Origin: Methanobacteriota archaeon
Lineage (GTDB): Archaea > JAADCQ01 > Methanopyri > Methanopyrales > Methanopyraceae
Reading direction: 5' to 3'
Length of the DNA: 45,941 bases
Assembly: GCA_027064425.1 (NCBI GenBank)
Contig: JAMOPO010000026.1
Span: 1-45,941, forward strand
Shown here piece by piece: positions 311 to 42,706 of this stretch. The notes below the pieces were generated by a model, which ran no database searches, was not told where the DNA came from, and was given only the letters and a program-made list of their open reading frames with translations. How positions within the stretch are numbered: the first letter of the stretch is position 1; every line of letters begins with the position of its first letter. A program made the position numbers and the translations under genes.

Positions 311-337
311 GAATCGTTACGACATTCGAAACGATTC
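311..337. repeat. 27-bp palindromic intergenic motif, copy 1 (GAATCGTTACG-ACATT-CGAAACGATTC)
   Basis: 11-bp inverted arms with 5-bp spacer; five similar copies elsewhere in the window. Confidence 0.85.
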
Positions 338-346
338 CCGGGACGC

Positions 347-412
347 TCCGCCCGGGTGAAGTCGATCATCCCGCGGGGCCACCGGTCACCCTCAAGGGCC
401 GACGCTCTTCAT
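347..412 (-). ncRNA. candidate box C/D sRNA (B)
   Basis: Minus strand: C AUGAAGA, guide, D' GUGA, C' GGAUGA, guide UCGACUUCACCCGGG, D CGGA. The C box lies within a 13-bp tandem duplication (404-429). Confidence 0.55.
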
Positions 413-452
413 CGCGGCTCTTCATCGCGGTGTCTTCCGCGCCGGCCGAACC

Positions 453-508
453 TCAGCCCGGGTGAAGTCGATCATCCCCGGCGGGTCACGCGTAACGAGC
501 CTCGTCAC
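453..508 (-). ncRNA. candidate box C/D sRNA (A)
   Basis: Minus strand: C GUGACGA, 12-nt guide GGCUCGUUACGC, D' GUGA, CCC/GGG hairpin, C' GGAUGA, guide UCGACUUCACCCGGG, D CUGA. Confidence 0.65.
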
Positions 509-573
509 TGGCGCCGCTTCCCCACCGTTTCCCCGTGATGCCGCCGTACCCCGGTCGAGTTGAAGGCTTCGCC

Positions 574-600
574 GAATCGTTGCGGGGTTTAGAACGATTA
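574..600. repeat. 27-bp palindromic motif, copy 2 (GAATCGTTGCG-GGGTT-TAGAACGATTA)
   Basis: Same arm sequence and spacing as copy 1, more degenerate right arm. Confidence 0.75.
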
Positions 601-749
601 CCGGCCGGGATCGCGCCCGACGGGTCCCGCGGTCCTCGGCGTCCTGTCGCTCGGGTGCACGTTCGGGTGCGCCGGTGTGGTGCGTGTGCGGCCGGTCGTG
701 GTTGGCGAAGGGTTTTTAGTCTCGGTGCGGTGGGTGCGTGGGTGGAGGC

Positions 750-839
750 GCGGGGGCGCCCGAGCCTGGTCAAAGGGGCGGGAATGAGGATCCCGTGGCC
801 GTAGGGCCGTCCCGGGTTCAAATCCCGGCCCCCGCACCA
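750..839 (+). tRNA. tRNA-Leu(GAG), class II, genomically encoded CCA, C at position 8
   Basis: Acceptor GCGGGGG/CCCCCGC, D arm CCC...GGG, anticodon stem CGGGA/TCCCG with loop ATGAGGA (anticodon GAG 786-788), long variable arm, T arm CCGGG-TTCAAAT-CCCGG, ACCA end. TATA-like TTTTTAG about 30 bp upstream. Confidence 0.97.
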
Positions 840-843
840 GCGG

Positions 844-870
844 GAATCGTTATGGGTCTCGTAACGTTTG
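844..870. repeat. 27-bp palindromic motif, copy 3 (GAATCGTTATG-GGTCT-CGTAACGTTTG)
   Basis: Begins 4 bp after the tRNA CCA end, between the convergent tRNA and vhuD genes. Confidence 0.8.
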
Positions 871-885
871 TGGGTCGGCGGATCC

Positions 886-917
886 GCCCGGGGGTCCCGT
901 TCGGGTTCCCCCCGGGC
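886..917 (-). promoter_or_regulatory. archaeal SECIS element in the 3' UTR of vhuD/mvhD
   Basis: Minus strand GCCCGGGGG-GAA-CCC-GAAC-GGG-A-CCCCCGGGC: GC stem, GAA/A internal loop and three C-G pairs with an apical loop, about 18 nt after the stop codon of a gene with in-frame UGA codons. Confidence 0.92.
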
Positions 918-935
918 CTCATCCCGCCGGTGCGT

Positions 936-1340
936 TTACTCCTGGAAGGGTGGGCCGAGTTCTTCGGCCCGTTTGTGCATTTCTTTGGCGGCTTTGACGA
1001 ACTTGTCGGCGTCGGCGGAGCTCATGAAGTACATCTCGACGCGCTCGGGCTCTAGGCCCATGGCTTCGAGGAGCTTCTTGGTGGCCTGGACGCGGCGTTC
1101 GCACTTGAGGTTGCCGTCCTCGTAGTTGCACTCTCCCTTCTTTCACCCGGCGATGAAGACGGTCCAGGCGCCTCTGGCGAGGGCGGTGAGGATGTGTTCG
1201 ATGCCGATGCGGCCGGTGCAGGGTACTCGGACGATTCTGACGCTGGTGGGGTACTGCATGCGGCTGGTGCCGGCGAGGTCGGCGGCGCCGTAGCCTCACT
1301 CGTAGCAGCAGAAGGCGACGACGATGGGTTCTTCTGCCAT
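936..1340 (-). CDS. mvhD: F420-non-reducing hydrogenase iron-sulfur subunit D (VhuD/MvhD), selenoprotein with Sec15 and Sec66
   Basis: Manual translation: [46 protein letters not shown]...FIAG-U-KKGECNYEDGNLKCERRV...LGPPFQE* (134 aa). In-frame TGA at 1296-1298 and 1143-1145 sit at conserved Cys positions; SECIS downstream; GGGTGA RBS upstream. Confidence 0.95.
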
Positions 1341-1417
1341 GGTGATCACCCGTGCGGGCGCTGGTGGGCTTTGGCTTAAATGGCTTGTCATCGGGGGGTT
1401 CGATCGGGGTGTCGAGC

Positions 1418-2704
1418 GTGGGTCGGGTGGTGTTGGAGGGGGTTCGGGAGGTGTCGGGTGAGGTCTCGCCGCCGCCGTCGAAGAGTGGGTCGCATCGGGC
1501 GTTGTTGGCGGCGGCGTTGTGTGAGGGGGAGACGGTGCTGAGGAACGTGTTGGAGGCGGATGATGTGCGGGCGACGGTGGGTCTGTGTCGGGCGTTGGGT
1601 GCGGGTGTGGGGGTGGAGGGTGAGGGTCGGTGGGTGGTGCGGGTGTCGGGGTTCGGTTGTGAGCCTGGGGTGCCGGGTGATGTGGTGGATTGTGGGAACT
1701 CGGGGACGACGTTGCGGTTGGGGTGTGGTGTGGCGGGGTTGGTGGAGGGTCGGGTGGTGTTGACGGGTGATGAGTCGTTGCGGTCGCGGCCGGTGGGGGA
1801 CTTGTTGGCGGCGCTGCGGTCGTTGGGGGTGGAGGCGTGGGGTCGGGTGCGGGAGGGTGAGGAGTTCCCGCCGGTGGTGGTGTCGGGGCGGCCGTTTCGG
1901 GATCGGGTGGCGGTGTACGGGCGGGTGAGCTCGCAGTTCGTGAGCGCGCTGTTGTTCTTGGGGGCGGGGTTGGGGGAGCTGCGGGTGGATGTGGTGGGTG
2001 GGCTGCGGTCGCGGCCGTACGTGGACTTGACGGTGGAGGTGTTGGAGGCGTTCGGGGTGTCGGTGGGGCGGGAGGGGTCGTCGTTCGTGGTGGAGGGTCG
2101 GCCGGAGTCGCCGGGGGAGTTTCGGGTGGAGAATGACTGGAGCTCGGCGGGCTACTTCGTGGCGTTGGGGGCGATCGGTGGGAAGGTGTGGGTGCGTGGG
2201 GTGGATCTGGACTCGTCGCATCCGGACCGGCGGATCGTGGAGATTGTGGAGGAGATGGGGGCGGTGGTGCGGGAGCGTGGTGATGGTGTGGTGGTGCGGT
2301 CGTCGGGGTCGTTGGAGGGGGTGGAGGTGGATCTGTCGGACGCGCCGGATCTGGTGCCGACGGTGGCGGCGTTGGGGTGCTTCGCGGAGGGTGTGACGCG
2401 GATCGTGAACGTGGGTCACGTGCGGTTCAAGGAGGTGGATCGGCTGCGGGCGTTGGCGGAGGAGCTGCCGCGGTTCGGGGTGGAGGTGCGGGAGGGGCGG
2501 GACTGGTTGGAGGTGAGGGGTGGTGAGCCGGTGGGGGCGCGGGTGAGCTCGCGGGGTGATCATCGGATGGCGATGGCGTTGGCGGTGGTGGGTGCGTTCG
2601 CGCGGGGTGAGACGGTGATCGAGGGTGCGGACGCGGTGTCGGTCTCGTACCCGGGGTTCTGGGAGGATCTGGCGTCGGTGGGGGTGCGGGTGCGGTCGGG
2701 GTAG
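1418..2704 (+). CDS. aroA: 3-phosphoshikimate 1-carboxyvinyltransferase (EPSP synthase)
   Basis: PPSKSGSHRAL, DCGNSGTTLR, SSQFVSALL, RFKEVDRL and GDHRMAM motifs; GTG start chosen from the GGGGTG RBS. Confidence 0.96.
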   Translation: MGRVVLEGVREVSGEVSPPPSKSGSHRALLAAALCEGETVLRNVLEADDVRATVGLCRALGAGVGVEGEGRWVVRVSGFGCEPGVPGDVVDCGNSGTTLRLGCGVAGLVEGRVVLTGDESLRSRPVGDLLAALRSLGVEAWGRVREGEEFPPVVVSGRPFRDRVAVYGRVSSQFVSALLFLGAGLGELRVDVVGGLRSRPYVDLTVEVLEAFGVSVGREGSSFVVEGRPESPGEFRVENDWSSAGYFVALGAIGGKVWVRGVDLDSSHPDRRIVEIVEEMGAVVRERGDGVVVRSSGSLEGVEVDLSDAPDLVPTVAALGCFAEGVTRIVNVGHVRFKEVDRLRALAEELPRFGVEVREGRDWLEVRGGEPVGARVSSRGDHRMAMALAVVGAFARGETVIEGADAVSVSYPGFWEDLASVGVRVRSG

Positions 2705-2766
2705 GCCGGCGGGCCCGGCGCCTGGGGTATTTAAGCGCGGTGGGCGGGTTCGGGGCGGGGTGCTCG

Positions 2767-3945
2767 TTGAACACGCTGGGTCGGTGGTTCCGGGTCACGA
2801 CGTGGGGTGAGTCGCACGGTCGGGCGCTCGGTGCGGTGGTGGATGGGTGTCCGGCGGGGCTGCCGCTCTCGGAGGAGGATGTGCAGCGGGAGCTGGATCG
2901 GCGGCGCCCGGGTCAGTCTTCGGTCTCGACGCCGCGGTCGGAGCGGGATCGGGTGGAGTTCCTGTCGGGCGTGTACGAGGGTCGTACGCTCGGGACGCCG
3001 ATCAGCATGGTCGTGTGGAACGAGGACGTGGACTCGTCCAGGTACGAGCCGGTTAAGACGCGGCCGCGGCCGGGGCACGCGGACCTGACGTACCGGTGGA
3101 AGTACGGGCACGTGGATTGGCGGGGCGGTGGTCGGGCGTCGGGTCGGACGACGGTGGGTGTGGTGATGGGTGGGGCGGTGGCGCGGAAGCTGCTGCGGGA
3201 GGCGCCGCTGGAGGATCCGTTGGGGATCGAGATCGCGGGTCACGTGGTGCGGGTGGGCTCGGTGGAGGTGGGTGAGGTGGGGGAGCTCTCCGCGTCGGAG
3301 ATCCGGCGGCGGGCGGAGTCGAACCCGGTGAGGTGCGTGGACGGGTCGGTGGCGGAGGAGATGGTGGAGGAGATCGAGCGGGCGCGGGAGGAGGGGGATT
3401 CGGTGGGTGGGACGGTGGAGGTGGTGGCGGAGAACGTTCCGCCGGGGTTGGGTGACCCGGTGTTCGGGCGGTTGGACGGGGAGCTGGCGGGGGCGTTGAT
3501 GAGCATTCCGGCGGTGAAGGCGGTGGAGGTCGGGTCGGGCGTGGAGTGCTCGGGCATGCGGGGCTCGGAGCACAACGATCCGATCGTGTGGCGGGAGGGG
3601 CGGCCGGTGGTGGACGGTGATCGGTGCGGTGGGGTGCTGGGTGGGATCTCGTGCGGTGGTCGGCTGGTGGTGCGGGTGCACGTGAAGCCGACGCCGTCGG
3701 TCTCGGTCCCGCAGCGGACGGTGGATCTGGCCTCGGGGGAGGAGGTGGAGCTGTCGGTGGAGGGCCGGCACGACCCGTGCATCTGCCCGCGGGTGGTGCC
3801 GGTGGTCGAGGCGGTGGTGGCGATCGTGCTGGCGGACGCGGTCCTGCGGGCGGGGTACGTGAACCCGGATAGCGTGGAGCTGCCGGCGGCGTCGGTGGAG
3901 GACCGGTGGGAGGTGCTGCGGCGGAATCTGCCGTCGGAGGAGTGA
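2767..3945 (+). CDS. aroC: chorismate synthase
   Basis: TTWGESHG, RPRPGHAD, GGGRASGRTT, GGISCG and GRHDPC motifs; TTG start. Confidence 0.97.
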   Translation: MNTLGRWFRVTTWGESHGRALGAVVDGCPAGLPLSEEDVQRELDRRRPGQSSVSTPRSERDRVEFLSGVYEGRTLGTPISMVVWNEDVDSSRYEPVKTRPRPGHADLTYRWKYGHVDWRGGGRASGRTTVGVVMGGAVARKLLREAPLEDPLGIEIAGHVVRVGSVEVGEVGELSASEIRRRAESNPVRCVDGSVAEEMVEEIERAREEGDSVGGTVEVVAENVPPGLGDPVFGRLDGELAGALMSIPAVKAVEVGSGVECSGMRGSEHNDPIVWREGRPVVDGDRCGGVLGGISCGGRLVVRVHVKPTPSVSVPQRTVDLASGEEVELSVEGRHDPCICPRVVPVVEAVVAIVLADAVLRAGYVNPDSVELPAASVEDRWEVLRRNLPSEE

Positions 3946-4038
3946 GCCCGGGGTGGGCCGGGCCGTTAACCGGAGGTGGGCGCCGGCGGTGTGAGCAGGT
4001 TTTAACCCGCGGCGTGGGGCCGGTGCGGGGGGTTCGGG

Positions 4039-5181
4039 ATGGAGAAGCTGGTGCTGCTGCCGGGCCCGGTCATGGTGCACGAGGACGTGCTGCTGCGGTC
4101 GGCCAAGCAGGTGATGAATCACAGGAGTGAGGAGTTCGAGGAGGTCCTGCGGGAGTGCTTGGAGCTGTCGCGGTACGTGTTTCAGACGGAGGGTGAGGTG
4201 GCGATCATCACGGGCTCGGGCACGGCGGGCATGGAGGCGGCGGTGTACAGCCTGGTGGAGCCGGGCGAGGAGGTGGTGGCGGTGGTGAACGGGAAGTTCG
4301 GGGAGCGGTTCGCGGACATCGCGGAGCGGCGGGGCGCGGAGGTGATCCGGGTGGAGTTCGAGTGGGGTGAGGCGGCGGACCCGGAGCGGGTGGAGGAGGC
4401 TCTGGCGGACTCGGACGCGGAGGTCGTGACGATGGTACACTGTGAGACGTCGACGACGGTGCTGAATCCGGTGGAGGAGGTGGCGCGGGTCTGCCGGGAG
4501 TACGACGTGATCTTCGTGGTGGACGCGATCTCGTCGCTGGGCGGTGCGGAGTTCCGCATGGACGACTGGGGCGTGGACGTGTGCGTGACGGGGTCGCAGA
4601 AGGTGCTGGGCTGTCCGCCGGGGCTGGCGCTGGTGGCGGTGAACGACCGGGCGCTGGAGCGGATGGAGGAGCGGGAGTCGGGCAGCTACTACCTGGACCT
4701 GCCGAAGTACCTGAGGTTCTTGAAGGAGGATCCGATGCAGACGCCGTACACGCCGGCGGTGAACGAGTTCTACGCGCTGTTGGAGGCGCTGAGGCGGCTG
4801 AAGAAGGAGGGGCTGGAGAACCGGTGGGAGCGGTGCCGGGAGCTGCAGCGGGTGGTGCGTGAGGGCATCAGGGCGCTGGGGCTGGAGCTGTTCGTGGAGG
4901 ATGACGAGATCGCCTCGCCGACGGTGACCGGGGTCGTGTACCCGGACGGTGTGGACGACCGGGAGTTCCGGGGCCTGCTGCGGGACAAGTACGACGTGGT
5001 GGTGGCGGGCGGTCAGGACCATCTGGCGGGCAAGATCTTCCGGATCGGTCACATGGGTGAGGTCCGGGTGCGCGACATGGTGACCGCGGTGACGTGCGTG
5101 GGCCTGGCCATGCGGGAGCTGGGCGTGGACGTGGACGTGGGCGCGGCGGCGGAGGCGATGGCGGACGCGATCGGTGGCTAG
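4039..5181 (+). CDS. class V PLP-dependent aminotransferase (alanine-glyoxylate/serine-pyruvate family)
   Basis: LLPGPV, GSGTAGME, HCETST, VDAISSLGG, TGSQKVLG (PLP lysine), FRIGHMG. Confidence 0.9.
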   Translation: MEKLVLLPGPVMVHEDVLLRSAKQVMNHRSEEFEEVLRECLELSRYVFQTEGEVAIITGSGTAGMEAAVYSLVEPGEEVVAVVNGKFGERFADIAERRGAEVIRVEFEWGEAADPERVEEALADSDAEVVTMVHCETSTTVLNPVEEVARVCREYDVIFVVDAISSLGGAEFRMDDWGVDVCVTGSQKVLGCPPGLALVAVNDRALERMEERESGSYYLDLPKYLRFLKEDPMQTPYTPAVNEFYALLEALRRLKKEGLENRWERCRELQRVVREGIRALGLELFVEDDEIASPTVTGVVYPDGVDDREFRGLLRDKYDVVVAGGQDHLAGKIFRIGHMGEVRVRDMVTAVTCVGLAMRELGVDVDVGAAAEAMADAIGG

Positions 5182-5924: not shown

Positions 5925-5952
5925 GCGGCCCTCCCCCTTGGGGGGAAGGCCG

Positions 5953-7048: not shown

Positions 7049-7087
7049 GGGGTCCCCCTGATCGGCGTACCCCGCCAGCCGGCGCGG

Positions 7088-16108: not shown

Positions 16109-17229
16109 AGTCCGAACCGCTCTTCCTGCCAGTCCTGATCATCGAAGTACTCGGAGAGGACCTCCGCGGCGACGCTGGTGGAGACGCCGGTCCGGGCGGC
16201 CAGGTGCACGGTGGAGATGTTCTCCCCGTGGACGGCGAGCACGATCGGCAGCTCTCGCTCCGCCCGCTCGGCGTCGGAGGCGGCGTCCACGAGCAGGCTG
16301 ATGTCCACCTCGTCCTTCCACTTCATCTTCCGGTTCACGACGCTCCTCTTCGCCAGCTTCTCGGCCACGGAGCCACCGCGCGGGTGCTTGCTGAGGATGG
16401 CCCAGAACCCGCGCTTCAGGACGACCTCCGCCAGGACCTCCTCGTCGTCCAGCGCCCGCTCGCCCAGCTCCGTGGGCTCGCAGACCTCCGGGTCCGGGTG
16501 CACCAGGAGGTACCGGACCAGGGTCTTGTAGTACCGGAGGAACGTGCTCTCCGACACGCCCAGCTCGGACATGACGAGCTCCGGGTCGCGCAGCTCGTCC
16601 ACCAGCTCCAGCGTCTCCATCAGCGAGGGCGGTGACAGCGGGTTGGTCACGTAGGGCTCCAGCGAGAGCCTGACCCGCCACTGGTGCGAGGGTAGAAGCC
16701 GCGCGTAGGCGAACCCGTGCACCGAGGACTCCACGAACTCGGCGTAGTCCCGCGGGGCGGAGTTGATCGTGTAACCGATCGTCCTGCCGAGCACGCTGTT
16801 CGAGATCGAGCCCTCAGAGGCTCGGATGAAGGACATGTCCGGGCCCGGCTGTCGGCGGACCTCGCCCTCCCCCACCAGGAGCTCGTCCAGCCGCTTCAGC
16901 GCCCCCTCCAGCGTCCCCGAGTCGTTGACCGCGGACTCGACCGGCTCCAGCGTGTGCTCGCCGATCACCTCCCGAAACAGGCTCGCCTCCCGCAGGGCCG
17001 CGACCGTGAGCATGGCCCCCTCCCGCGGGTTCTTCAACCCCGCCAGGATGTCCCTGGCCTTGGAGTACTCACTGTGGACCAGGAGGGCCGCCGCCGTCGA
17101 GATGATGTACTCGTACTCGTTGGTGATCTCCGCCTCCCGGATGATCCTCGCCAGCCGCTGGTAGAGGGTCTTCACTTTTCGCAGCTCTGACCTCATCTCC
17201 ATCAGCGTGGCTATCGCGTCATGGTCCAA
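16105..17229 (-). CDS. hypothetical protein with two possible winged-HTH segments
   Basis: Translationally coupled between mmp10 and hypF. Segments VMSELGVSESTFLRYYKTL and TVHLAARTGVSTSVAAEVL resemble HTH motifs. Confidence 0.65.
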   Translation of the reverse strand: MDHDAIATLMEMRSELRKVKTLYQRLARIIREAEITNEYEYIISTAAALLVHSEYSKARDILAGLKNPREGAMLTVAALREASLFREVIGEHTLEPVESAVNDSGTLEGALKRLDELLVGEGEVRRQPGPDMSFIRASEGSISNSVLGRTIGYTINSAPRDYAEFVESSVHGFAYARLLPSHQWRVRLSLEPYVTNPLSPPSLMETLELVDELRDPELVMSELGVSESTFLRYYKTLVRYLLVHPDPEVCEPTELGERALDDEEVLAEVVLKRGFWAILSKHPRGGSVAEKLAKRSVVNRKMKWKDEVDISLLVDAASDAERAERELPIVLAVHGENISTVHLAARTGVSTSVAAEVLSEYFDDQDWQEERFGL

Positions 17230-18586: not shown

Positions 18587-18600
18587 GGAAACCCTTTAAA
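18587..18600 (+). promoter_or_regulatory. BRE/TATA promoter of mcrB (GGAAACCCTTTAAA)
   Basis: Archaeal promoter consensus 36 bp upstream of the mcrB ATG. Confidence 0.7.
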
Positions 18601-18636
18601 CGCGGCCGGCACGCCAGACGCCGGGGGCCCGCCCCC

Positions 18637-19971
18637 ATGGCTCGCAAGTTCGAGGACACGGTCGACCTGTACGACGACCGGGGCAACTGCGTGGCCGAGG
18701 ACGTGCCCATTGAGGCGCTCTCGCCGATGAGGAACGAGGCCATTCAGAGCATCGTGAACGACATCAAGCGCACCGTGGCGGTCGACCTGGAGGGTATTGA
18801 GAACGCGCTCCAGAACGCCGCCGTCGGCGGCAAGGGCATGAAGATTCCGGGCCGCGAGCTGGACGTCGACGTGGTGGACAACGCCGAGGCGATCGCGGAC
18901 AAGGTGGAGGAGATGATCCGCGTTCACGAGGACGACAACACGAACGTCGAGCCGCTGTACGACGGCAAGCGACTCCTGGTCCAGCTGCCGGACGAGCGCG
19001 TGAAGGCCATGGCGGACCCGTACTCCGGCACCATGCAGGCCGGCATGGCCGTCGTGTACGCGATCATCGACGTGTGCGAGGTGGACATGTGGGACGCGAA
19101 CATGGTCAAGGCGGCCGTCTTCGGCCGGTACCCGCAGACGATCGACTACCACGGCGGCAACATCATGTCCATGCTGGACGTCCCGATGAAGCAGGAGGGT
19201 GTGGGCTACGCGCTGCGCAACGTCATGGTGAACCACATCGTGGCCGCCACGCGGAAGAACGCGATGCAGGCCGTGTGCCTGGCCGCGACGCTGGAGCAGA
19301 CCGCCATGTTCGAGATGGGTGACGCGCTGGGCCCGTTCGAGCGGCTGCACCTGCTGGGCTACGCGTACCAGGGCCTGAACGCGGACAACATGGTCTACGA
19401 GATCGTGAAGAAGCACGGTAAGGACGGCACCGTGGGTACCGTCGTCCGCGAGGTCGTGGAGCGCGCGCTCGAGGACGGCGTGATCGAGGTCAAGGAGGAG
19501 CTGGACTCCGGTTTCAAGGTGTACAAGGCCAACGACATGGACCTCTGGAACGCGTACGCCGCGGCCGGCCTCGTCGCCGCGGTCATGGTCAACCAGGGCG
19601 CGGCCCGGGCCGCGCAGGGTGTCAGCGCGACCATCCTGTACTACAACGACCTGCTCGAGTACGAGACCGGGCTCCCGGGCGTCGACTTCGGTCGAGCCCA
19701 GGGTACCGCCGTCGGATTCAGCTTCTTCAGCCACTCGATCTACGGCGGCGGTGGCCCGGGTATCTTCAACGGTAACCACATCGTGACGCGGCACTCGAAG
19801 GGCTTCGCGATCCCGCCAGTGGCCGCGGCGATGGCCCTGGACGCCGGAACGCAGATGTTCAGCCCGGAGGTCACCAGCAAGCTGATCGGCGACGTGTTCG
19901 GCGAGATCGACGAGTTCCGCGAGCCCATGAGGTACATCATGGAGGCGGCGGCCGAGGAGGCCAAGCGCTAG
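18637..19971 (+). CDS. mcrB: methyl-coenzyme M reductase beta subunit
   Basis: [50 protein letters not shown]. Confidence 0.99.
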
Positions 19972-20001
19972 CCTCGAACCCCTCCCCTCCCACGCCCGCG
20001 C

Positions 20002-20028
20002 AAATCGTTACGAAACTCGTAACGGAAG
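20002..20028. repeat. 27-bp palindromic motif, copy 4 (AAATCGTTACG-AAACT-CGTAACGGAAG)
   Basis: In the mcrB-mcrD spacer. Confidence 0.8.
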
Positions 20029-20045: not shown

Positions 20046-20600
20046 GTGGCCGAGCGCGAGCGCCCCCGCATGCTCGAGCGCAAGGTGCCCGAGGACGCCA
20101 ACCCCGAGGTCCAGATCTTCCCCGAGCGCCTGCTCAGCGCCGACACCGTGGAGAAGCTGCTCAACGAGCTCGTCGACCGCGTCGAGGGCATCGGCCGCAT
20201 CGTCCTCCACGGACCCGGCCTGCCCAAGGTGGTCCCCTTCGGCCCCGCCCGGGGTAAGCCCGTCAAGCACCCGGAGCGGAAGCCCATCGAGGTCAAGGGC
20301 GAGAAGATCCCCATGAAGATCCAGGCGGGTCAGGTCATCGTCGAGATCGAGGACGAGGAGCGCCTCGACGAGATCGTCGAGGAGATCGAGGAGGTCTGCC
20401 GCGAGGTCCTACCCTGCGACTTCCAGGTGCAGGTGGGACGCTTCACCAAGCACAAGCCCACGGTGACGGACTACCTCAAGTTCGGGGAGAAGGGCGTCGA
20501 GGAGCTCGACGACCGGCTCCTGGGCCTCGTCGAGCCGCGCGCCCGGCTCGCGGACCGGGTGGCCGTCCTGAAGAAGAAGGAGGAAGAAGAGGATGAGTGA
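20046..20600 (+). CDS. mcrD: methyl-coenzyme M reductase operon protein D
   Basis: [34 protein letters not shown]; position in the cluster. Confidence 0.97.
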
Positions 20601-21289: not shown

Positions 21290-21304
21290 GAAACCCCTTT
21301 AAAA
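21290..21304 (+). promoter_or_regulatory. internal BRE/TATA promoter before mcrG (GAAACCCCTTTAAAA)
   Basis: Nearly identical to the mcrB promoter. Confidence 0.6.
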
Positions 21305-21335
21305 TTAGGCGGGCCCCCGCCTCAGGGGGTCCCGA

Positions 21336-22221: not shown

Positions 22222-23889
22222 ATGGCCTCCCGCAAGAAGGAAGAGAAGCTCTTCATGAAGGCCCTGAAGGAGAAGTTCGAGGAGGACCCGGAGGACGTCA
22301 CGACTCACTTCTACGACTACGGTGGCTGGAAGCAGTCCGAGCGTAAGAAGGAGTTCAAGGAGTACGCGGACAAGATCGCCGAGGAGCGAGGCATCCCGCA
22401 CTACAACCCGGACATCGGCGTCCCGCTCGGCCAGCGGAAGCTGATGTCCTACCAGGTGTCCGGTACGGACGTGTTCGTGGAGGGTGACGACCTGCACTTC
22501 GTGAACAACGCCGCGATGCAGCAGATGTGGGACGACATCCGGCGGACGGTCATCGTCGGACTGGACACGGCCCACCGCGTGCTGGAGCGCCGACTGGGTA
22601 AGGAGGTCACGCCCGAGACGATCAACGAGTACATGGAGACCCTGAACCACGCCCTGCCGGGCGGTGCGGTCGTCCAGGAGCACATGGTGGAGATCCACCC
22701 GGGCCTGACCGCCGACTGCTACGCGAAGATCATCACCGGTGACCTGGAGCTGGCCGACGAGATCGACGACAAGTTCCTGATCGACATCGAGAAGCTGTTC
22801 CCGGAGGAGCAGGCCGAGCAGCTGATCAAGGCCATCGGAGACCGAGTGTACCACGTGCTGCGGATGCCGACGATCGTCGGCCACATCTGTGACGGTGCCA
22901 CGATGTACCGCTGGGCCGCGATGCAGATCGCGATGTCCTTCATCTGCGCGTACAAGATCGCGGCCGGAGAGGCGGCCGTCTCCGACTTCGCGTACGCGAG
23001 CAAGCACGCCGAGGTCATCAACATGGGCGAGATGCTACCCGCCCGGCGGGCCCGAGGTGAGAACGAGCCCGGAGGCGTCCCGTTCGGCATTCTGGCGGAC
23101 TGCGTCCAGACGATGCGGAAGTACCCGGACGACCCGGCCAAGGTCGCGCTGGAGGTCATCGCCGCCGGAGCGATGCTGTACGACCAGATCTGGCTAGGAT
23201 CCTACATGTCCGGCGGCGTCGGCTTCACGCAGTACGCGACCGCCGTGTACACGGACAACATCCTGGACGACTACGTGTACTACGGCCTCGAGTACGTCGA
23301 GGACAAGTACGGCCTGGCCGAGGCCGACCCGAGCATGGACGTGGTGAAGGACGTGGCCACCGAGGTGACGCTGTACGGCCTCGAGCAGTACGAGCGGTAC
23401 CCGGCCGCGATGGAGACGCACTTCGGCGGCTCGCAGCGAGCGGCCGTGGTCGCGGCCGCGGCCGGCTGCAGCGTGGCGTTCGCGACCGGCCACTCGCAGG
23501 CCGGAGTGAACGGCTGGTACCTGTCGCAGATCCTGCACAAGGAGGGTCACGGTCGACTGGGCTTCTACGGCTACGACCTGCAGGACCAGTGCGGTGCGGC
23601 CAACTCGCTGAGCGTGCGGAGCGACGAGGGTCTACCGCTGGAGCTGCGAGGTCCGAACTACCCGAACTACGCGATGAACGTGGGTCACCTGGGCGAGTAC
23701 GCCGGTATCGTCCAGGCCGCGCACGCGGCGCGCGGCGATGCGTTCTGCGCCAACCCGCTGGTGAAGGTGGCGTTCGCGGACCCGGACCTGGTCTTCGACT
23801 TCACGGAGCCGCGGAAGGAGTTCGCCAAGGGCGCGCTGCGAGAGTTCGAGCCGGCGGGCGAGCGGGACATCATCATCCCGGCGGAGTAG
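22222..23889 (+). CDS. mcrA: methyl-coenzyme M reductase alpha subunit
   Basis: [56 protein letters not shown]. Confidence 0.99.
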
Positions 23890-23942
23890 ACTCGCCCCTC
23901 ACGCCCTCCCCACTTTCACAACATTTTTAAGGCGAGCACCTG

Positions 23943-23969
23943 GGATCGTTTCGGGAGGCGTAACGTAAT
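23943..23969. repeat. 27-bp palindromic motif, copy 5 (GGATCGTTTCG-GGAGG-CGTAACGTAAT)
   Basis: In the mcrA-mtrE spacer, about 12 bp downstream of TATA-like ATTTTTAA (23923-23930). Confidence 0.75.
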
Positions 23970-24011: not shown

Positions 24012-24908
24012 TTGGTCAGCTTCACGGAGATCGGCCTGGCCGCGGCGATGGGCGCGCTGGCGACCATCGCGGGCGCGTTCGAGGACGCCGAGTCCGACGT
24101 GGGCTCCCAGTCCAACCCGAACTCGCAGGTCCAGCTGGCGCCCCAGATGATGAACTTCCACCGGTACTTCAACAAGGCGATCTCCGGCGAGCCGGTCTCC
24201 TACATGATGTACGGCGCGGTGGCGGGCACGGTGACCTGGGTCATGATGACGAAGTTCGGCCTCCCCTTCCTGGCCGCGGCCGCGATCGGCGTGGGTGTGA
24301 ACGCGCTCGTCCACATGGTGTTCGCGACGACCGCCCACCTGGGTCGAATCGCCAGCGCGGCGGAGTTCGGTCACCCGCTCTACCTGGACGTGGTCCTGTC
24401 CCACCTGGGCCCGATCGCGGGCTTCGGTGGGATCGCGGTCTTCGCGATCGTGGCCCTGGCGTACCTGCAGTGGTCCGCCCTTAAGCACCCGTTCCCGATG
24501 CCGCTCCTGGCCGCGCTCTGGGGCGTGACGGTCGGCGCGATCGGATCCTCGACGGGAGACGTGCACTACGGCGCGGAGCGACTGTACCAGCACTACCCGT
24601 TCGGCGGCGGTGTCCCGGTGGCCGCGCACGGTAACATCACCCGGAAGGCGGAGACGGGCGTCCGGAACTCCATGGACAGCGTGTACTTCTGCGCGAAGTA
24701 CGGCTGCCCGCTCACGGGACTGTGCTTCGGGCTGGTCGTGTTCTTCAGCACGTGGGCGGGCCTGTTCGGCCAGTGGGGCGCGGTGATCGCGATGCTCCTG
24801 GTCACGCTGGCCTGCCTGATCGTGAGCAACCGGATCGAGAAGCGGGCGCGGGAGAACTACGGCACGTACGAGGACGTGGAGCTGGACGAGATCTGCGACG
24901 CGGTGTAA
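24012..24908 (+). CDS. mtrE: tetrahydromethanopterin S-methyltransferase subunit E
   Basis: [36 protein letters not shown]. Confidence 0.98.
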
Positions 24909-35663: not shown

Positions 35664-35664
35664 G

Positions 35665-36720: not shown

Positions 36721-36977
36721 CCCAGGAGCTCCACCCTCTCCACCTCGATCACCTTCACCCGCTCGGTCGGCACGTTCTCCTCGGGCTCCTCGTAGTCGGA
36801 GACCACCTTCACCTCCTCGTGCGGCTCGAACTCTCGACCGCACTCCTCCAGGACCAGGTCCCCCTCCCGGAGCAGCATCGCGAACTTCCGCTCCACCCTC
36901 ACGCTCCCGATCCGCACCTCCAGCTCCCGCGTCGGTCCCTCGATGCGCACGCGGTTGAACTGCACCGCGTCAACCAC
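36717..36977 (-). CDS. small hypothetical protein
   Basis: 86-aa acidic ORF coupled to spcS and the EamA gene; GGAGG RBS. Confidence 0.7.
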   Translation of the reverse strand: MVDAVQFNRVRIEGPTRELEVRIGSVRVERKFAMLLREGDLVLEECGREFEPHEEVKVVSDYEEPEENVPTERVKVIEVERVELLG

Positions 36978-38283: not shown

Positions 38284-38302
38284 GCGCCCCTCCCCCACCA
38301 CC

Positions 38303-38641
38303 GTGAGGATCGACGGCGAGCTCCGGGCGGTCTCCCGCGAGGTTGCCGCGGCCCTCAAGGAGCTCGAGCGGGCCGGGGTCAACGTCGTGAGCGCCGGGGT
38401 GAGGGTCGATCCCGAGGACCGGCCCAGCTTCTACGCCGCCCCGTTCCTGGACCTGCCCACCCTCGAACTCGAGCGGGAGGAGCTCGCGGAGGCCATCCGG
38501 GGCGGCACCCGGGTCCGCGCCGAGCCGGGCGCCTATAAACTCTCGGTGAAAGGCGTCGCCATGGGCGCCGGTCGGGTGGGCGAGGACGGCGTCCTGCGCG
38601 TCCGCCTCCCGCGGAAGTACGCCCGGCTCCGGCTGTGGTAA
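38303..38641 (+). CDS. small PUA-like protein resembling the RsmF C-terminal/NIP7-type domain
   Basis: VNVVSAGVR...LELEREE...GVAMGAGRV...VRLPRKY pattern; ends 1 bp before the m5C methylase ATG. Confidence 0.55.
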   Translation: MRIDGELRAVSREVAAALKELERAGVNVVSAGVRVDPEDRPSFYAAPFLDLPTLELEREELAEAIRGGTRVRAEPGAYKLSVKGVAMGAGRVGEDGVLRVRLPRKYARLRLW

Positions 38642-38642
38642 G

Positions 38643-39572
38643 ATGAAGCCGCGACGCCTCGAGACCTTCCGGGAGCGCCTCGAGCTGGTCTTCGAGGACC
38701 GGGCCGAGGACGTGCTCCGCTACCTGCTGGAGGAGCGCCCGCCCACCTACGTCCGCGTGAACACCCTGAAGGCCGACGTCGAGTCCGTGGTCGAGTCCCT
38801 CGAGCGCGCGGGCGTGCGACTGGAGGAGACGCCGCTCCCCTACGCCTTCCGCGTGCTCGAGGCCCCTGGCCCGATGGGCTCCTCCCTGGAGCACGCGGCC
38901 GGGTTGATTTACGTTCAGGATCTCGCCTCAATGATCCCGCCGGAGCTGCTGTCGCCCGAGCCTCCGGGCCCGGTGATCGACGCGTGCGCGGCCCCCGGGA
39001 GCAAGACCACCCAGCTGGCGCAGCTGATGGAGGGCCGGGGCGTCATCCTGGCCGTGGACGTGGACCCCAAGCGGGTGCGCTCCCTGGCGCACAACGTGGA
39101 GCGGATGGGCGCGATCAACGTGATCGTGGCCCGGGAGGACGCGACGAGGCTCCGCGTGGGCGCTCCTTACATCCTCCTCGACCCGCCGTGCACGGGGGAG
39201 GGGACGTTCCACCGCGACTCGCACGCGAGGGAGACCTGGACGCCGGCGAAGGTGCTCCGGTTCGCGCGGAAGCAGGAGCGCCTCCTGCGGGCCGTCGTGG
39301 AGCTGCTGCCGCCCGGGGGCCGGCTGGTCTACTCCACCTGCACCTTCTCTCCCGAGGAGAACGAGCTCGTGATCCACCGGGCGCTCGGGGACGATGACCG
39401 GTTCCGCATCGTGGACGAGCGGCCCCGCTGGCTCCGCCGGCACACGGTGCCGGGCCTGACCGAGTGGGAGGGGGAGGAGCTGCGGCCCGACCTCCGCAAC
39501 GCCTTCCGCGTGGATCCTTCCAGCCTGCGCTCGGACGGGTTCTTCATCGCCGTCATCGAGCGCGTGTCGTGA
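38643..39572 (+). CDS. NOL1/NOP2/Sun (RsmB/RsmF) RNA cytosine-C5 methyltransferase
   Basis: VRVNTLK, YVQDLASM, DACAAPGSKTT, LLDPPCTGEG, LVYSTCT..PEENE. Confidence 0.95.
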   Translation: MKPRRLETFRERLELVFEDRAEDVLRYLLEERPPTYVRVNTLKADVESVVESLERAGVRLEETPLPYAFRVLEAPGPMGSSLEHAAGLIYVQDLASMIPPELLSPEPPGPVIDACAAPGSKTTQLAQLMEGRGVILAVDVDPKRVRSLAHNVERMGAINVIVAREDATRLRVGAPYILLDPPCTGEGTFHRDSHARETWTPAKVLRFARKQERLLRAVVELLPPGGRLVYSTCTFSPEENELVIHRALGDDDRFRIVDERPRWLRRHTVPGLTEWEGEELRPDLRNAFRVDPSSLRSDGFFIAVIERVS

Positions 39573-39620
39573 CCTCAAGTTTAACTACCTCGGGGTGCGC
39601 GGTTCACGCCGGGGAACGCC

Positions 39621-40703
39621 TTGACCGAGGTCGGCGGTGAGACGGTCGACAAGCGGGACATCGCCATCCTCCGAGCGATGGAGGGACTCAGCCGAGCGTT
39701 CGAGTGGGTGCCCGAGGACAAGCTCCTGGAGCGCCTGCCGATGGACTACGCGGAGCTGGCGGCCCGGCTCGAGAAGCTGGACAACCTGGGAGTGATCGAG
39801 TACCGGTACATCGACATGTACCAGACTTACGCGGCGAAGATGAAGGAGAAGGCCTACGACACGCTCGCCCTCTGGGACATGAAAAAGCACGACGTGTACG
39901 AGCGGCTGGGCACGGTCATCGGCGAGGGCAAGGAGGCGACGATCCTGAACGCGAAGGATCCGGACGACGAGTTCATCGTGATCAAGCTCCACCGGTACCA
40001 CGCGCCCGAGTTCCGGCGGATCAAGAAGACGCTCGCGTACGCCGCGGTCAAGGTCCGCGGCGAGGAGCTACAGGTGGAGGATCACCGACTCGACGTGCCC
40101 CGGGCCAAGGCGCAGGTGGAGATGAAGGTGCTCCAGATCTTCAGCTCCAAGGGCTTTCCCGTCCCGGACCCGCGGTCCATCAACCGGCACGCCGTCGCCA
40201 TGGACATGATCGAGGGTAACGCGCCCGGCATCCCGGCCCCGCTCCTGGCCAAGGTCAAGGTCAAGAACCCGGAGGACGCGCTGGAGACGATCCTCGAGGA
40301 CTACAAGGAGATGGTCCTCGAGGGCCACTACGTGCACGGGGACCTCAGCGAGCACAACATCCTCGTCACCCCGGACGGGGAGCTGTACTACGTCGACTGG
40401 CCGCAGGCCGTGCCCGTCGAGCACCCGTCCGCGCCCAAGCTCTGCTACCGGGACATCAAGAACATCATCGAGCACTTCAAGCGCAAGTACCGGATCAACG
40501 TCCCGGACCCGAAGGAGGTGTACAACGAGATCGCCGACGACCTGCAGTCCCTGATGGAGGAGAAGAAGGAGGAGTACGAGGAGCACAAGGAGGCGGCCGA
40601 GAAGACGCTCGAGCGGTTCGAGGAGAGCGTGGAGCGGGTGGAAGGTAAGCGTGAGAAGCGTGAGGCCGGACGCCGGAAGGTTGAGGAGAGTGGGGTTTCC
40701 TGA
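39621..40703 (+). CDS. Rio2-type atypical Ser/Thr kinase
   Basis: N-terminal wHTH (FEWVP, YDTLAL), IGEGKEA, HGDLSEHNIL, VDWPQ. Confidence 0.92.
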   Translation: MTEVGGETVDKRDIAILRAMEGLSRAFEWVPEDKLLERLPMDYAELAARLEKLDNLGVIEYRYIDMYQTYAAKMKEKAYDTLALWDMKKHDVYERLGTVIGEGKEATILNAKDPDDEFIVIKLHRYHAPEFRRIKKTLAYAAVKVRGEELQVEDHRLDVPRAKAQVEMKVLQIFSSKGFPVPDPRSINRHAVAMDMIEGNAPGIPAPLLAKVKVKNPEDALETILEDYKEMVLEGHYVHGDLSEHNILVTPDGELYYVDWPQAVPVEHPSAPKLCYRDIKNIIEHFKRKYRINVPDPKEVYNEIADDLQSLMEEKKEEYEEHKEAAEKTLERFEESVERVEGKREKREAGRRKVEESGVS

Positions 40704-41334
40704 GGTCATCCTGGCCGAGGGCAAGACGGTGGAGGAGATCGAGCACGCCCTCAAGCGCCTCCTCCGCTCGGACGGCCTCGCCATCGTCTCCCGGCTCGAC
40801 CCGGACCGCCGGGAGGAGCTGGACCTGCCGGACGGAGTCGAGACCGAGTACGACGAGCGGGCCCGCCTCCTGATCGCCCGCGTCCCGGACTACGAGCCGC
40901 CCTACCGGGGCGGTCGCGTCGCCGCCCTGGCCGCCGGGACCTCCGACCTCCCGTACCTGCGCGAGTCCACCCGGATCCTCGAGGCCCTGGGCGTCGAGGT
41001 CCGAGAGTGGGTCGACGTGGGCCTCGCCGGCCCCCACCGACTCTTCTCCACCCTGCGCGAGCTGCGCGAGTTCCGCCCGCACGCGGTCATCGCCGCCGCC
41101 GGCATGGACGGGCACCTGCCCGTCCTCGTGAACGCCCTGGTGGACGCTCCCGTGATCGGCCTCCCGACCCCCGTCGGCTACGGGGTGGGCGGGTCCGGGG
41201 AGGCCGCCCTGCTCAGCATGCTCCAGACCTGCTCCCCCGGCCTGACGGTCGTGAACGTCGGGAACGGCGTCGGCGCCGCCGCGGCCGCGATCAAGATCGT
41301 CCGCACAGTCCTGCGGGAGGGAGGTGACGATTAG
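40651..41334 (+). CDS. larB: LarB/CpmA (PurE-like) nickel-pincer cofactor biosynthesis protein
   Basis: RRVGFPEVILAEGKT, AAGTSD, DVGLAGPHRL, AGMDGHL, PTPVGYG, MLQTCSPG..VVNVGNG. Confidence 0.88.
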   Translation: MRSVRPDAGRLRRVGFPEVILAEGKTVEEIEHALKRLLRSDGLAIVSRLDPDRREELDLPDGVETEYDERARLLIARVPDYEPPYRGGRVAALAAGTSDLPYLRESTRILEALGVEVREWVDVGLAGPHRLFSTLRELREFRPHAVIAAAGMDGHLPVLVNALVDAPVIGLPTPVGYGVGGSGEAALLSMLQTCSPGLTVVNVGNGVGAAAAAIKIVRTVLREGGDD

Positions 41335-42667
41335 CACCATGGAGCTCCGCGCCTCGGACCTGCGCACGATCGAGGACGTGGAGCGCTACGTGGGCATCCG
41401 AGAGCGCCTCCTCAGGCGCGGGGTCGGAGGCACCTGCCGCGAGCGCATCGAGGACTTCCTGGTCATGGAGAAGCCGAGCCGGAACACCTACATCCCCCTC
41501 ACCCTGGTCGGCGAGTGTCCCGAGTGCCGGGAGTACCACCGGGGCCGCACCTGCCCCGACTGCGGGGTCGAGCTGAGGCGACCCCGGGTCCACCCGCAGC
41601 TCACGGTCCGGAAGCCGCACACCGTCTTCTACCTCGAGAAGTACGATTGGGACACCCTCAAGGCCGTCCGCCGCATCGCCCGGGCGCTCCACCGTCATCA
41701 CCGCGACTTCGGCATCGCCGGGATGAAGGACAAGCGGGCCGTAACCACCCAGCGCGTGAGCGCCCGCGGCGTCCCGCCGGAGTCCCTCCTCGGGGTCCGG
41801 GTCAGGGACATCCGGATCATCCCCGTCGGCGGAGCCCGACGCAAGCTGCGCCCGGGCGACCTTTGGGGCAACCGCTTCGTGATCACCGTGCGCGGGGCCG
41901 ACGCCCGCCGCGTGGACGCCCTGGTCGAGCGCGTGCGCGAGCTGGGTGGCGTCCCCAACTACTTCGGCCTGCAGCGGTTCGGCAGCCGGCGGCCCGTCAC
42001 CCACGTGGTCGGCAAGTACGTGGTGAAGGAGGACTGGGAGCGGGCCGTGAAGACCTTCCTAACCCTGGAGTACCCGCGGGAGTCCGAAGAGGCCATTGAG
42101 GCCCGCCGGTGGCTCAAGGAGAACTGGGGCGAGTTCGAGGAGGCCCTGCGGCGCTTCCCCCGCTTCCTGGACTACGAGCGGCAGATCCTGGAGCACCTGG
42201 CCCGGCACCCGAACGACTACATCAACGCCTTCCGCCGGCTGCCGATGTGGATCCGCAGGATGTTCATCCACGCGTACCAGTCCTACCTGTACAACCTGAT
42301 CCTCTCGGAGCGCATCGCCCGCGGCCTGCCGCTGGATCGACCCGTCGAGGGCGACATCACCCAGGACGGCCTACCCACCGTGCCGCTCCCCGGCTACCGG
42401 ACGGAGCTCAGCGAGGGTGAGCAGGGGGAGATCGAGCGGGAGATCCTGGAGCGGGAGGGGATTGAGCTGGAGGACTTCAAGATTAAGTCCATGCCGGAGC
42501 TCTCCGCGGGCGGCGACCGGAAGCCCGCCCTTCTCCGCGTGTACGGGCTGCGGGCCGAGGTGCTCCGGGAGGACGTTGTTAGGTTCAAGTTCTCGCTGCC
42601 GAGGGGCGGGTACGCGACCACGGTCCTCCGCGAGCTCCTCGGCTCGAAGGGGATCTACGCGGACTGA
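41324..42667 (+). CDS. truD: tRNA pseudouridine(13) synthase TruD with Zn-ribbon-like insertion
   Basis: EDFLV, GIAGMKDKRAVTTQ, GDLWGNRFVI, PNYFGLQRFG, HAYQSYLYN, FSLPRGGYAT. Confidence 0.95.
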   Translation: MTISTMELRASDLRTIEDVERYVGIRERLLRRGVGGTCRERIEDFLVMEKPSRNTYIPLTLVGECPECREYHRGRTCPDCGVELRRPRVHPQLTVRKPHTVFYLEKYDWDTLKAVRRIARALHRHHRDFGIAGMKDKRAVTTQRVSARGVPPESLLGVRVRDIRIIPVGGARRKLRPGDLWGNRFVITVRGADARRVDALVERVRELGGVPNYFGLQRFGSRRPVTHVVGKYVVKEDWERAVKTFLTLEYPRESEEAIEARRWLKENWGEFEEALRRFPRFLDYERQILEHLARHPNDYINAFRRLPMWIRRMFIHAYQSYLYNLILSERIARGLPLDRPVEGDITQDGLPTVPLPGYRTELSEGEQGEIEREILEREGIELEDFKIKSMPELSAGGDRKPALLRVYGLRAEVLREDVVRFKFSLPRGGYATTVLRELLGSKGIYAD

Positions 42668-42679
42668 GTCCCACCGCCG

Positions 42680-42706
42680 GGAACGTTACGATCCTCGAAA
42701 CGATTC
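42680..42706. repeat. 27-bp palindromic motif, copy 6 (GGAACGTTACG-ATCCT-CGAAACGATTC)
   Basis: Between the convergent truD and small Zn-finger genes. Confidence 0.85.

Follow-up and report, generated by a model that had tools for sequence, protein, structure and literature searches.

A lineage-restricted 27-bp dyad behind archaeal genes as a candidate two-sided roadblock to RNA polymerase

A 45,941-nt stretch of DNA from a Methanopyraceae archaeon (assembly GCA_027064425.1, contig JAMOPO010000026.1), here called the window, carries six copies of a 27-bp palindrome between its genes, and raises the question of what such a dyad does at the ends of rRNA, tRNA and protein-coding genes. The initial annotation, made from the sequence alone, took it for the site of a dimeric DNA-binding protein that blocks transcription in a sequence-specific manner, placed mostly behind highly transcribed genes. 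The six copies are all real and are the only ones present: a symmetrised 31-nt position weight matrix, built genome-wide, finds exactly six matches of at least 10 bits in the window, which are those already annotated, and none had been overlooked. The earlier pattern, with up to 3 mismatches allowed, matches at 311-337, 844-870 and 42680-42706, each on both strands (mean of 0.00 matches in 100 shuffles), and the copies at 574-600, 20002-20028 and 23943-23969 lie more than 3 letters off that pattern and are recognized by their matrix scores. The shorter form CGTTA-N9-TAACG is exact in copies 1, 4 and 6, and one letter off in each of copies 2, 3 and 5. The copies, to which no strand is assigned, are as follows.

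311-337: motif copy 1, GAATCGTTACGACATTCGAAACGATTC, exact match to the earlier pattern, 40.7 bits; 133 nt past the 23S rRNA end
574-600: motif copy 2, degenerate, 24.7 bits; in a non-coding stretch ahead of tRNA-Leu, 75% identical to copy 1 over 32 nt
844-870: motif copy 3, 3 mismatches, 38.2 bits; starts 4 nt past the CCA of tRNA-Leu, with vhuD converging
20002-20028: motif copy 4, 34.5 bits; between mcrB and mcrD
23943-23969: motif copy 5, the weakest in the window, 20.9 bits; between mcrA and mtrE, 10 nt past a TTTTTAA box
42680-42706: motif copy 6, 2 mismatches, 38.3 bits; between the convergent truD and a 54-aa zinc-finger open reading frame (ORF)

The answer favored here, which stands at about an even chance of being right, is that the 27-bp dyad is the site of a dimeric DNA-binding protein and serves as a two-sided roadblock terminator. 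Two inverted AATCGTTAYGA half-sites at one rigid spacing would be read as duplex DNA by a dimeric sequence-specific protein, and RNA polymerase arriving from either side would stop ~8-9 nt before the core, i.e. 10-11 nt before the invariant GTT, so that the transcript would end there. The tRNA genes would be positioned such that the stop point falls at the encoded CCA, or at the discriminator base if CCA is not encoded, and the 3' untranslated regions of protein-coding genes would thereby measure about 6-50 nt. The final ~15 nt of the incoming RNA, rich in C and poor in G, would form a second, strand-specific part of the signal, and weak copies within operons, namely those at mcrB-mcrD and mcrA-mtrE, would stop polymerase incompletely.

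The palindrome belongs to a large family with one fixed geometry. It was sought with the matrix, at cut-offs of 10, 14 or 20 bits, in the window's own genome (G000; 1.54 Mb, 67.8% G+C, 99% complete, with the window as contig C26) and throughout the complete genome of a congener (G002; 1,694,969 bp, 61.2% G+C); these are two of six genomes of the genus (G000-G005), which in the taxonomy used is the whole phylum. The G000 matrix gives the consensus AATCGTTAYGA-N3-TCRTAACGATT, in which the G-T-T and A-A-C positions vary little or not at all. At 14 bits or more, G000 holds 112 sites, compared with 0 in a copy simulated by a first-order Markov model, and G002 holds 120, compared with 1 in a simulated copy. 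The fixed 5-bp spacer noted in the window is found genome-wide, with 29 occurrences of CGTTNCG-N5-CGNAACG at 5 nt and 0 at spacers of 0-4 or 6-11 nt in G000, where likewise CGTTA-N9-TAACG occurs 53 times, against 0-2 times for any of the remaining spacings between 3 and 16. Such a single rigid spacing is what the geometry of a bound dimer predicts, whereas the loops of RNA hairpins tend to differ in size.

All six genomes of the genus contain 26-58 copies of CGTTA-N9-TAACG (34 in G002), versus 0-1 for a reversed control pattern. By contrast, five other archaeal genera have 1-3 copies, which with 0-9 for the control pattern is not above chance, and the exact core is absent from all 15 other genera examined. 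Among the genera compared, the motif is thus restricted to this lineage.

The placement of the copies is tied to the 3' ends of genes. Genes were called with a crude procedure of our own that covers ~81% of each genome, supplemented with ARAGORN. G000 has 106 sites of at least 20 bits. A gene 3' end points at 78 of these from no more than 150 nt away (from both sides at 18 of the 78), 8 have only 5' ends in their vicinity, 19 are without any called neighbor and 1 is well within a coding sequence (CDS); the corresponding numbers for the 103 sites in G002 are 76 (23 on both sides), 9, 13 and 5. Many of the sites with nothing called nearby are at contig ends or in non-coding stretches. For comparison, 80% of random positions fall inside features, and only about one-quarter of random intergenic positions face a 3' end. 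The hits are therefore neither random nor mostly inside CDS. No site of at least 20 bits is closer than 15 nt to a stop codon. When sites of at least 10 bits in G000 are classified by their neighbors, only 4 of 119 lie between divergent genes.

The tRNA genes show the tightest arrangement. Every one of the 37 CCA-encoding tRNA genes of G000 is followed by the motif, with a discriminator-to-core gap of 11-16 nt (11 nt in 25), the core starting 8 nt past the CCA in 25 of the 37. In G002 the motif follows 29 of 30 CCA-encoding tRNA genes, with gaps of 11-14 nt, while at five tRNA genes without an encoded CCA the gap is 9-10 nt. Since the gap shrinks where CCA is missing, the motif tracks the last encoded nucleotide. 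About two-thirds of the copies are not behind tRNA genes at all, but at protein-coding, rRNA and other non-coding loci, with about 50-70 protein-coding genes having the motif behind them.

The annotated emphasis on highly transcribed genes holds in part. The motif is indeed present at genes for tRNA and rRNA and at the mcr genes, but it is also found at ordinary housekeeping genes: among the 20 genes that precede the best CDS-linked sites are those for L32e, ArgRS, NrdD, Topo VI-A, PdxS, rubrerythrin, an ABC ATPase and radical-SAM enzymes. Because the genes ahead of the best sites are ordinary and varied, the element is not confined to highly expressed genes, and a restriction to such genes was rejected.

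Some copies in G000 form short arrays in non-coding DNA with ~100-270 nt spacing (C27:32014-32512, C2:2996-3364, C13:2058-2303, C48:671-918, C57:192835-193057 and C15:345496-345623). A regular-expression scan of seven motif-rich non-coding stretches gave four C/D-box small RNA candidates in three of them (C2, C57 and C15), at C2:3050-3099, C57:192964-193020 and C15:345685-345800, with no constant position relative to the motif; the same scan of window positions 150-900 gave no candidate.

Several features of the sequence point, indirectly, to a site read as duplex DNA by a dimer, and not as RNA structure. The two half-sites vary independently of one another. If the transcribed arms had to pair, sense-strand mismatches of the G.U type should be preferred to those of the A.C type, but at one-sided sites the two stand at 33:42 in G000 (p = 0.36) and 47:64 in G002 (p = 0.13), and transversion-type mismatches are numerous (97 and 131, respectively). 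All 11 arm pairs are formed in only 3 of 106 copies, with a median of 8 of 11, and none of the 106 copies has a stable fold at 98 C in ViennaRNA, whose parameters are extrapolated to this temperature and whose model does not include the high salt of the cell. The annotated expectation of a poor hairpin at ~100 C is borne out by this calculation. At one-sided sites the half-site far from the gene is nearly as well conserved as the near one (8.9 vs 9.5 of 11 positions).

Comparison between species leads in the same direction. Copy 4 (mcrB-mcrD) is kept in place in all five congeners with diverged flanks, and copy 5 (mcrA-mtrE) in the four congeners that could be aligned (G005 gave no alignment), within a spacer that otherwise diverges. 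The changes at the orthologous mcrB-mcrD and mcrA-mtrE sites are non-compensatory, and one T.T mismatch at the mcrA-mtrE site is kept in all five aligned genomes. The non-compensatory mismatches described in the window are confirmed, and no hairpin-type covariation was detected. On the genome scale, a G002 motif stands at the orthologous position for 30 of the 46 CDS-linked sites of G000, compared with 4 of 174 control genes; the sites are kept and their flanks diverged across a coding divergence of ~16-18%.

A copy at C3:145634-145652 in G000, adjoining the start of the next called gene, is conserved with unusual strictness: its 19-nt core CGTTACGGGGGTCGTAACG, loop included, is identical in G000, G001, G002, G003 and G005 (5 of 6 genomes).

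RNA 3' ends near the motif were located in the congener G002. Sequence of this organism is present in four public RNA libraries (2013, size-fractionated, from one study; runs X1-X4), and their assembled contigs were placed on 20 kb of the genome containing seven motif sites (L132; G002:36501-56500), with the junctions read against the sequence. Contigs that end in non-genomic A or T runs of 17-24 nt were taken to carry tails added to RNA 3' ends during library making; the trimming of such tails is mentioned in the available text of a small-RNA study of M. kandleri (PMC3695527). The motif-linked ends, in L132 coordinates, are listed below, with strand where assigned.

651, minus strand: mature end of tRNA-Gly, 9-10 nt to the core; runs X2 and X3
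15311/15312: mature end of tRNA-Ile, 8 nt to the core; runs X1 and X4
18722: mature end of a tRNA, 9-10 nt to the core; 4 of 4 runs
935, minus strand: mRNA end, 16 nt past the stop codon, 9 nt to the core; 4 of 4 runs
4090, plus strand: end of a non-coding RNA, 8 nt to the core; 4 of 4 runs
614: contig end with 24 unplaced letters, a probable RNA end, 8 nt to the core; run X4 only

The tails at three mature tRNA ends are an internal control that such tails mark RNA 3' ends. The non-tRNA tailed ends fall 8-9 nt before the core, on either strand and at different sites, and the CCA ends of tRNAs fall at nearly the same distance; the core next to position 614 also serves tRNA-Gly from its other side. 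Transcript 3' ends are thus present at the motif, at a few sites in G002, and lie upstream of it. Ends that precede the dyad on the plus strand at some sites and on the minus strand at others are expected of a block bound to the DNA, whereas a terminator hairpin or a stem that blocks exonucleases would give the opposite. Among seven other tailed ends listed, which are linked to neither a tRNA nor a motif, three follow T-rich tracts, and so ordinary T-run ends also exist in G002. The bins at the site at 17186-17204 are without depth, and a tRNA-Ala end is not among the rows listed. None of the 32 contig pieces listed bridges a motif, with 228 more outside this listing, and contigs cannot show that bridging is absent. 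In M. kandleri, tRNA precursors with 5' leaders and introns were described, but none with 3' trailers, and 3' processing was placed first in tRNA maturation (PMC3695527, in the portion available); precursors without trailers fit transcripts that end at or beside the CCA.

In the same 20 kb, an RNA contig joins L132 position 8291 back to 8228 in 3 of 4 runs, a 64-nt back-step such as a circular small RNA would give.

The dyad is accompanied by a strand-specific flank. In 119 gene-site pairs, C is plentiful and G scarce on the sense strand between positions -22 and -9 ahead of the core. Over the 15 nt that come directly after the stop codon, C and G amount to 56% and 25% in G000 and 45% and 21% in G002 where a motif follows, compared with 35% and 36% (G000) and 33% and 30% (G002) where none does. 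At one-sided sites the arriving-side flank has 54.5% C and 24.6% G in G000 and 47.7% and 20.1% in G002, whereas the far flank has 42.3% and 30.6%, and 39.1% and 26.4%, respectively; for two-sided sites, both flanks together have 50.6% and 26.9% in G000 and 45.7% and 25.0% in G002. Within the window the tract is present past mcrB, mcrA and truD. A G-poor tail of this kind cannot fold, and would permit backtracking or the loading of a factor.

Canonical T-run signals, by contrast, are scarce. Runs of five or more T follow 2.8% of CDS in G000 and 3.2% in G002, barely above an A-run control (1.3% and 2.1%), so that most transcription units of the lineage are without a recognizable terminator. Of the motif-linked CDS, 1 of 52 in G000 and 4 of 73 in G002 have such a run within 80 nt past the stop codon.

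The roadblock reading is accordingly supported, though unproven: none of the three outcomes named in advance as contrary to it (hits at random or mostly inside CDS, no transcript 3' ends at the motif, hairpin-type covariation) was found. A number of points nevertheless weigh against it. All placement counts depend on the crude gene calls. The support from RNA ends comes from two sure and one probable non-tRNA sites, from one study, in a congener and through assembled contigs, and a tailed end marks an RNA 3' end that is compatible with termination or with cleavage. The RNA ends ~6 nt before the first conserved base. Roadblocks halt polymerase at distances of about 10-14 nt, and the 10-11 nt to the GTT is close to the values for blocks by TTF-I, Reb1 and EcoRI-Q111; the distance therefore fits a roadblock only if the protein grips the DNA tightly from the invariant GTT onward. 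The RNA:DNA hybrid formed by a C-rich transcript end is strong, which does not favor spontaneous release. Copy 5 lies where a polymerase recruited by the TTTTTAA box would start, and a tightly bound protein there would hinder mtr transcription; this hindrance may be the reason that copy 5 is the weakest in the window.

The protein is the remaining difficulty. The fold with which Reb1 binds DNA is of the Myb type, and the window's genome has no match to Myb_DNA-binding (PF00249), while its best match to mTERF (PF02536) is 11.6 bits, below the cut-off; the inferred binding protein is thus no homologue of these factors. Ten genes beside sites that face no 3' end, as would befit a self-regulating binder, include none with a DNA-binding domain recognizable by Pfam. 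Seven of them have other Pfam matches (AIR-synthase-like, DUF763, THUMP/SpoU, ParA-like, DUF2117, AcnX and a wyosine-forming enzyme), and three have none.

The alternative closest to the published view of the motif is processing at the RNA level, in which the transcribed dyad is a stem-loop held by a protein and an endonuclease cuts ~6 nt before the stem. It accounts for RNA ends at a fixed distance from the motif, with tRNA ends to match, and for the strand-specificity of the C-rich tract, which would be expected of a signal in RNA; it has been proposed that the enzyme maturing tRNA 3' ends targets the motif (PMC5217627, in part), and the early timing of 3' processing (PMC3695527, in part) agrees with this. 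However, the arms are under no selection for pairing (33:42 and 47:64 for G.U:A.C, with many transversion mismatches), their mismatches are conserved between species without compensation, 0 of 106 copies fold at 98 C, the far half-site is nearly as conserved as the near one (8.9 vs 9.5 of 11), and some two-thirds of the copies are not behind tRNA genes; such processing is unlikely. A different mechanism again is a pause followed by cleavage. FttA (aCPSF1) cuts the growing transcript where it leaves the polymerase through the exit channel, at a point 15-25 nt back from the active site according to the available text of PMC11616081, and a polymerase whose transcript is cut at -9 would consequently sit inside the dyad. 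The single beta-CASP (FttA-type) gene found in G000 (127 bits, in a 699-aa open frame) and the G-poor, unstructured tract just before the end are in keeping with this. On the other hand, FttA prefers U-rich RNA with U at the cut site (PMC11616081, in part), whereas the tract here is C-rich and T5+ runs are found at 1 of 52 and 4 of 73 motif-linked CDS; the polymerase would need to be at core +6 to +16, and both half-sites and their rigid spacing are left unexplained, which makes this course of events rather improbable.

It is also possible that a dimer does bind, as the palindromic architecture implies, but as a global regulator or a chromatin or topology protein, with the RNA ends arising otherwise, for example by trimming back to a protected C-rich tract. 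The 8 of 106 copies near 5' ends only, the overlap of copy 5 with the expected mtrE start region, and the non-coding arrays at about 120-270 nt spacing would suit such a protein. The link of placement to 3' ends with tRNA gaps of 11-14 nt, the RNA ends at one distance on both sides, the C-rich tract that is more marked in the arriving-side flank, and the rarity of sites between divergent genes (4 of 119) would not, and this explanation is likewise given a low probability. A terminator without any factor, in which the polymerase of this lineage itself recognizes the downstream duplex and stops, has the problem that a polymerase whose active site is at -9 does not reach as far along the downstream DNA as the far half-site (core +12 to +22), which is nonetheless conserved at a rigid spacing. 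Although canonical T-runs are rare in G000 and G002, and the transcription machinery of the lineage has been reported as unusual, without TFS (PMC7289017, in part), self-recognition of this kind is very improbable. Finally, a selfish palindrome resembling a REP (repetitive extragenic palindromic) element or a MITE (miniature inverted-repeat transposable element) that spread into 3' flanks would also be dispersed, extragenic and found at 3' ends and inside operons. It can scarcely be credited here: the unit is only 27 bp without terminal repeats, the genome has no Y1 transposase, all 37 of the 37 tRNA genes have the motif at a fixed gap, and 30 of 46 sites are at orthologous places across ~16-18% coding divergence with diverged flanks.

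Returning to the dimer-bound roadblock, one property of the transcription machinery may bear on how final such a block would be. The transcript-cleavage factor TFS, which contains a zinc ribbon, sets blocked, backtracked polymerases going again. A match to this zinc ribbon that exceeds the Pfam cut-off is missing from all five genomes of the genus scanned (G000-G004), while 4 of 4 archaeal controls have one; a match below the cut-off (19.3 bits) is found in G003, inside a 431-aa frame. This agrees with the report, in the available text of PMC7289017, that TFS is missing only in M. kandleri. The genus name Methanopyrus used in the initial annotation is in keeping with this absence of TFS and with the published motif. 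A polymerase unable to restart would make a protein block a more final stop. The most far-reaching version of the proposal, that for much of the lineage's transcription a dedicated dimeric protein on ~120 dyads stops polymerase in both directions, makes tRNA CCA ends by termination without a trailer and replaces the T-run signals of other archaea, possibly enabled by the loss of TFS, is put forward tentatively, its chances being somewhat short of even.

The motif itself is not new. CGTTA(N)9TAACG was published in 2017 as a by-product of motif finding, as a palindromic sequence ~10 bp past about half of the M. kandleri tRNA genes that was not found in other genomes, and was proposed to guide the tRNA 3' maturation enzyme (PMC5217627, in the portion available). 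The pattern is identical to that described here, and is likewise palindromic, ~10 bp past tRNA genes and lineage-restricted. That work, as far as its available text goes, concerned about half of the tRNA genes of one strain, whereas essentially all are involved here, plus the ~2/3 of copies at other loci; conservation across six genomes, the lack of RNA-type covariation and RNA ends upstream on both sides are added by the present analysis. Placement away from tRNA genes, conservation in the genus, the evidence against a hairpin, upstream RNA ends and the C-rich tract were not found in the literature searched, which covered PMC5217627 in part, without its supplement, nor was a protein-roadblock terminator in Archaea found there, PMC5217627 being the only relevant paper that turned up. 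In the available text of a 2026 review of termination (PMC13675443), roadblocks are mentioned only for RNA polymerase I (Pol I), and neither roadblocks nor dyads for archaea; archaeal termination is described as U-tract-based, either intrinsic or helped by FttA (PMC13675443 and PMC11616081, in the portions available).

Compared with oligo-T or FttA-dependent termination, the present element likewise defines transcript 3' ends for the archaeal polymerase, but it has no T-run (1/52 and 4/73), and its signal is a sequence-specific dyad downstream of the RNA end. Hairpin-plus-U-tract intrinsic terminators differ from it in that here there is no stable stem, no covariation, and the ends come before the dyad. 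Roadblock terminators are known from Reb1/Nsi1 and TTF-I for Pol I, Reb1 for RNA polymerase II, and mTERF1 in mitochondria, of which Reb1 and TTF-I are polar. They share with the dyad a sequence-specific site just past the RNA 3' end, with the end ~10 nt before tightly conserved bases, an upstream strand-specific element, and a location behind highly used genes whose neighbors are protected. They differ in that the dyad is symmetric and seemingly two-sided, its upstream element is C-rich and not T-rich, it serves all gene classes of a single archaeal polymerase, and it has no Myb-type or mTERF homologue; the likeness would therefore be one of mechanism only, and not of protein family. REP elements and the bacterial interspersed mosaic elements (BIME) built on them are RNA hairpins that protect 3' ends, with the ends downstream of the stem, and are spread by RAYT transposases. 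Although they too are dispersed palindromes of ~30 bp in transcribed 3' flanks and between operon genes, the ends here are upstream, pairing is not kept, and a Y1 (RAYT-type) transposase (PF01797) has no match in G000. The system that is supported, but unproven, is then roadblock-type termination in an archaeon, at a symmetric dyad and without a homologue of the known factors.

If true, the dyad would define the first terminator system of the roadblock type in Archaea and give them a third termination route, parallel to those of Pol I in eukaryotes and of mitochondria. An explanation would then be at hand for the making of 3' ends on CCA-encoding tRNAs at about 100 C in a GC-rich lineage where T-runs stand behind only ~3% of genes and a sequence-specific dyad instead stands behind essentially every tRNA gene. 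Such a system would also allow the ratios of genes within an operon, mcrBDCGA for example, to be adjusted, and would supply a portable two-sided terminator part for work with thermophiles.

Within the window, the copies are intergenic and their neighbors are those that had been named (23S rRNA, tRNA-Leu, vhuD, mcrB, mcrD, mcrA, mtrE, truD and the microprotein ORF). The features around them are as follows.

1-178, plus strand: 3' end of the 23S rRNA gene (Rfam RF02540, 131 bits)
750-839, plus strand: tRNA-Leu (GAG), CCA encoded (ARAGORN; Rfam tRNA)
942-1340, minus strand: vhuD-type hydrogenase delta subunit, FlpD family (Pfam FlpD, E = 6.4e-49 on translation through the TGA codons); its 3' end is turned toward copy 3
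18637-19971, plus strand: mcrB (Pfam MCR_beta); stop 35 nt ahead of the copy 4 core
19972-20001, plus strand: C-rich, G-poor tract from the mcrB stop to copy 4, by its sequence the putative arriving-strand-specific part of the element
20046-20600, plus strand: mcrD (Pfam MCR_D), the first gene past copy 4
22222-23889, plus strand: mcrA (Pfam MCR_alpha); stop 58 nt ahead of the copy 5 core
23922-23932, plus strand: CATTTTTAAGG, by its sequence a candidate T-run terminator of mcrA or TATA-like box of mtrE, just ahead of copy 5
24012-24908, plus strand: mtrE (Pfam MtrE)
41324-42667, plus strand: truD (Pfam TruD); stop 17 nt ahead of the copy 6 core
42723-42887, minus strand: 54-aa ORF with two CxxC pairs; stop 21 nt beyond the copy 6 core

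At the position of CATTTTTAAGG, T4-T6 runs are also present in G001, G002 and G003, and there is none in G004. Upstream of both mcrB and mcrG is a common promoter-like box, GAAACCC(C)TTTAAA, at window positions 18587-18602 and 21290-21309, ~30-37 nt before the start codons. The box ahead of mcrG suggests a second promoter inside the mcr operon, and the candidate idea that copy 4 lowers mcrDC expression, with transcription restarting at mcrG, would fit this shared box.

Between copies 1 and 2 is a 27-nt direct repeat (CTCNGCCCGGGTGAAGTCGATCATCCC, 96% identical; window 346-372 and 452-478). This stretch, in which two small RNAs had been suspected, has no Rfam match and no canonical C/D boxes. 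In the window as a whole, Rfam finds the 23S end alone, and around copies 1-3 it finds tRNA-Leu plus weak, overlapping matches below the gathering threshold to tRNA-like models. The 54-aa ORF that converges on truD across copy 6 has a weak Pfam match to HVO_2753_ZBP (E = 0.002, below the cut-off). The vhuD-type gene contains two in-frame TGA codons, probably encoding two selenocysteines; standard ORF calling splits the gene, and the Pfam match is obtained only when TGA is read through.

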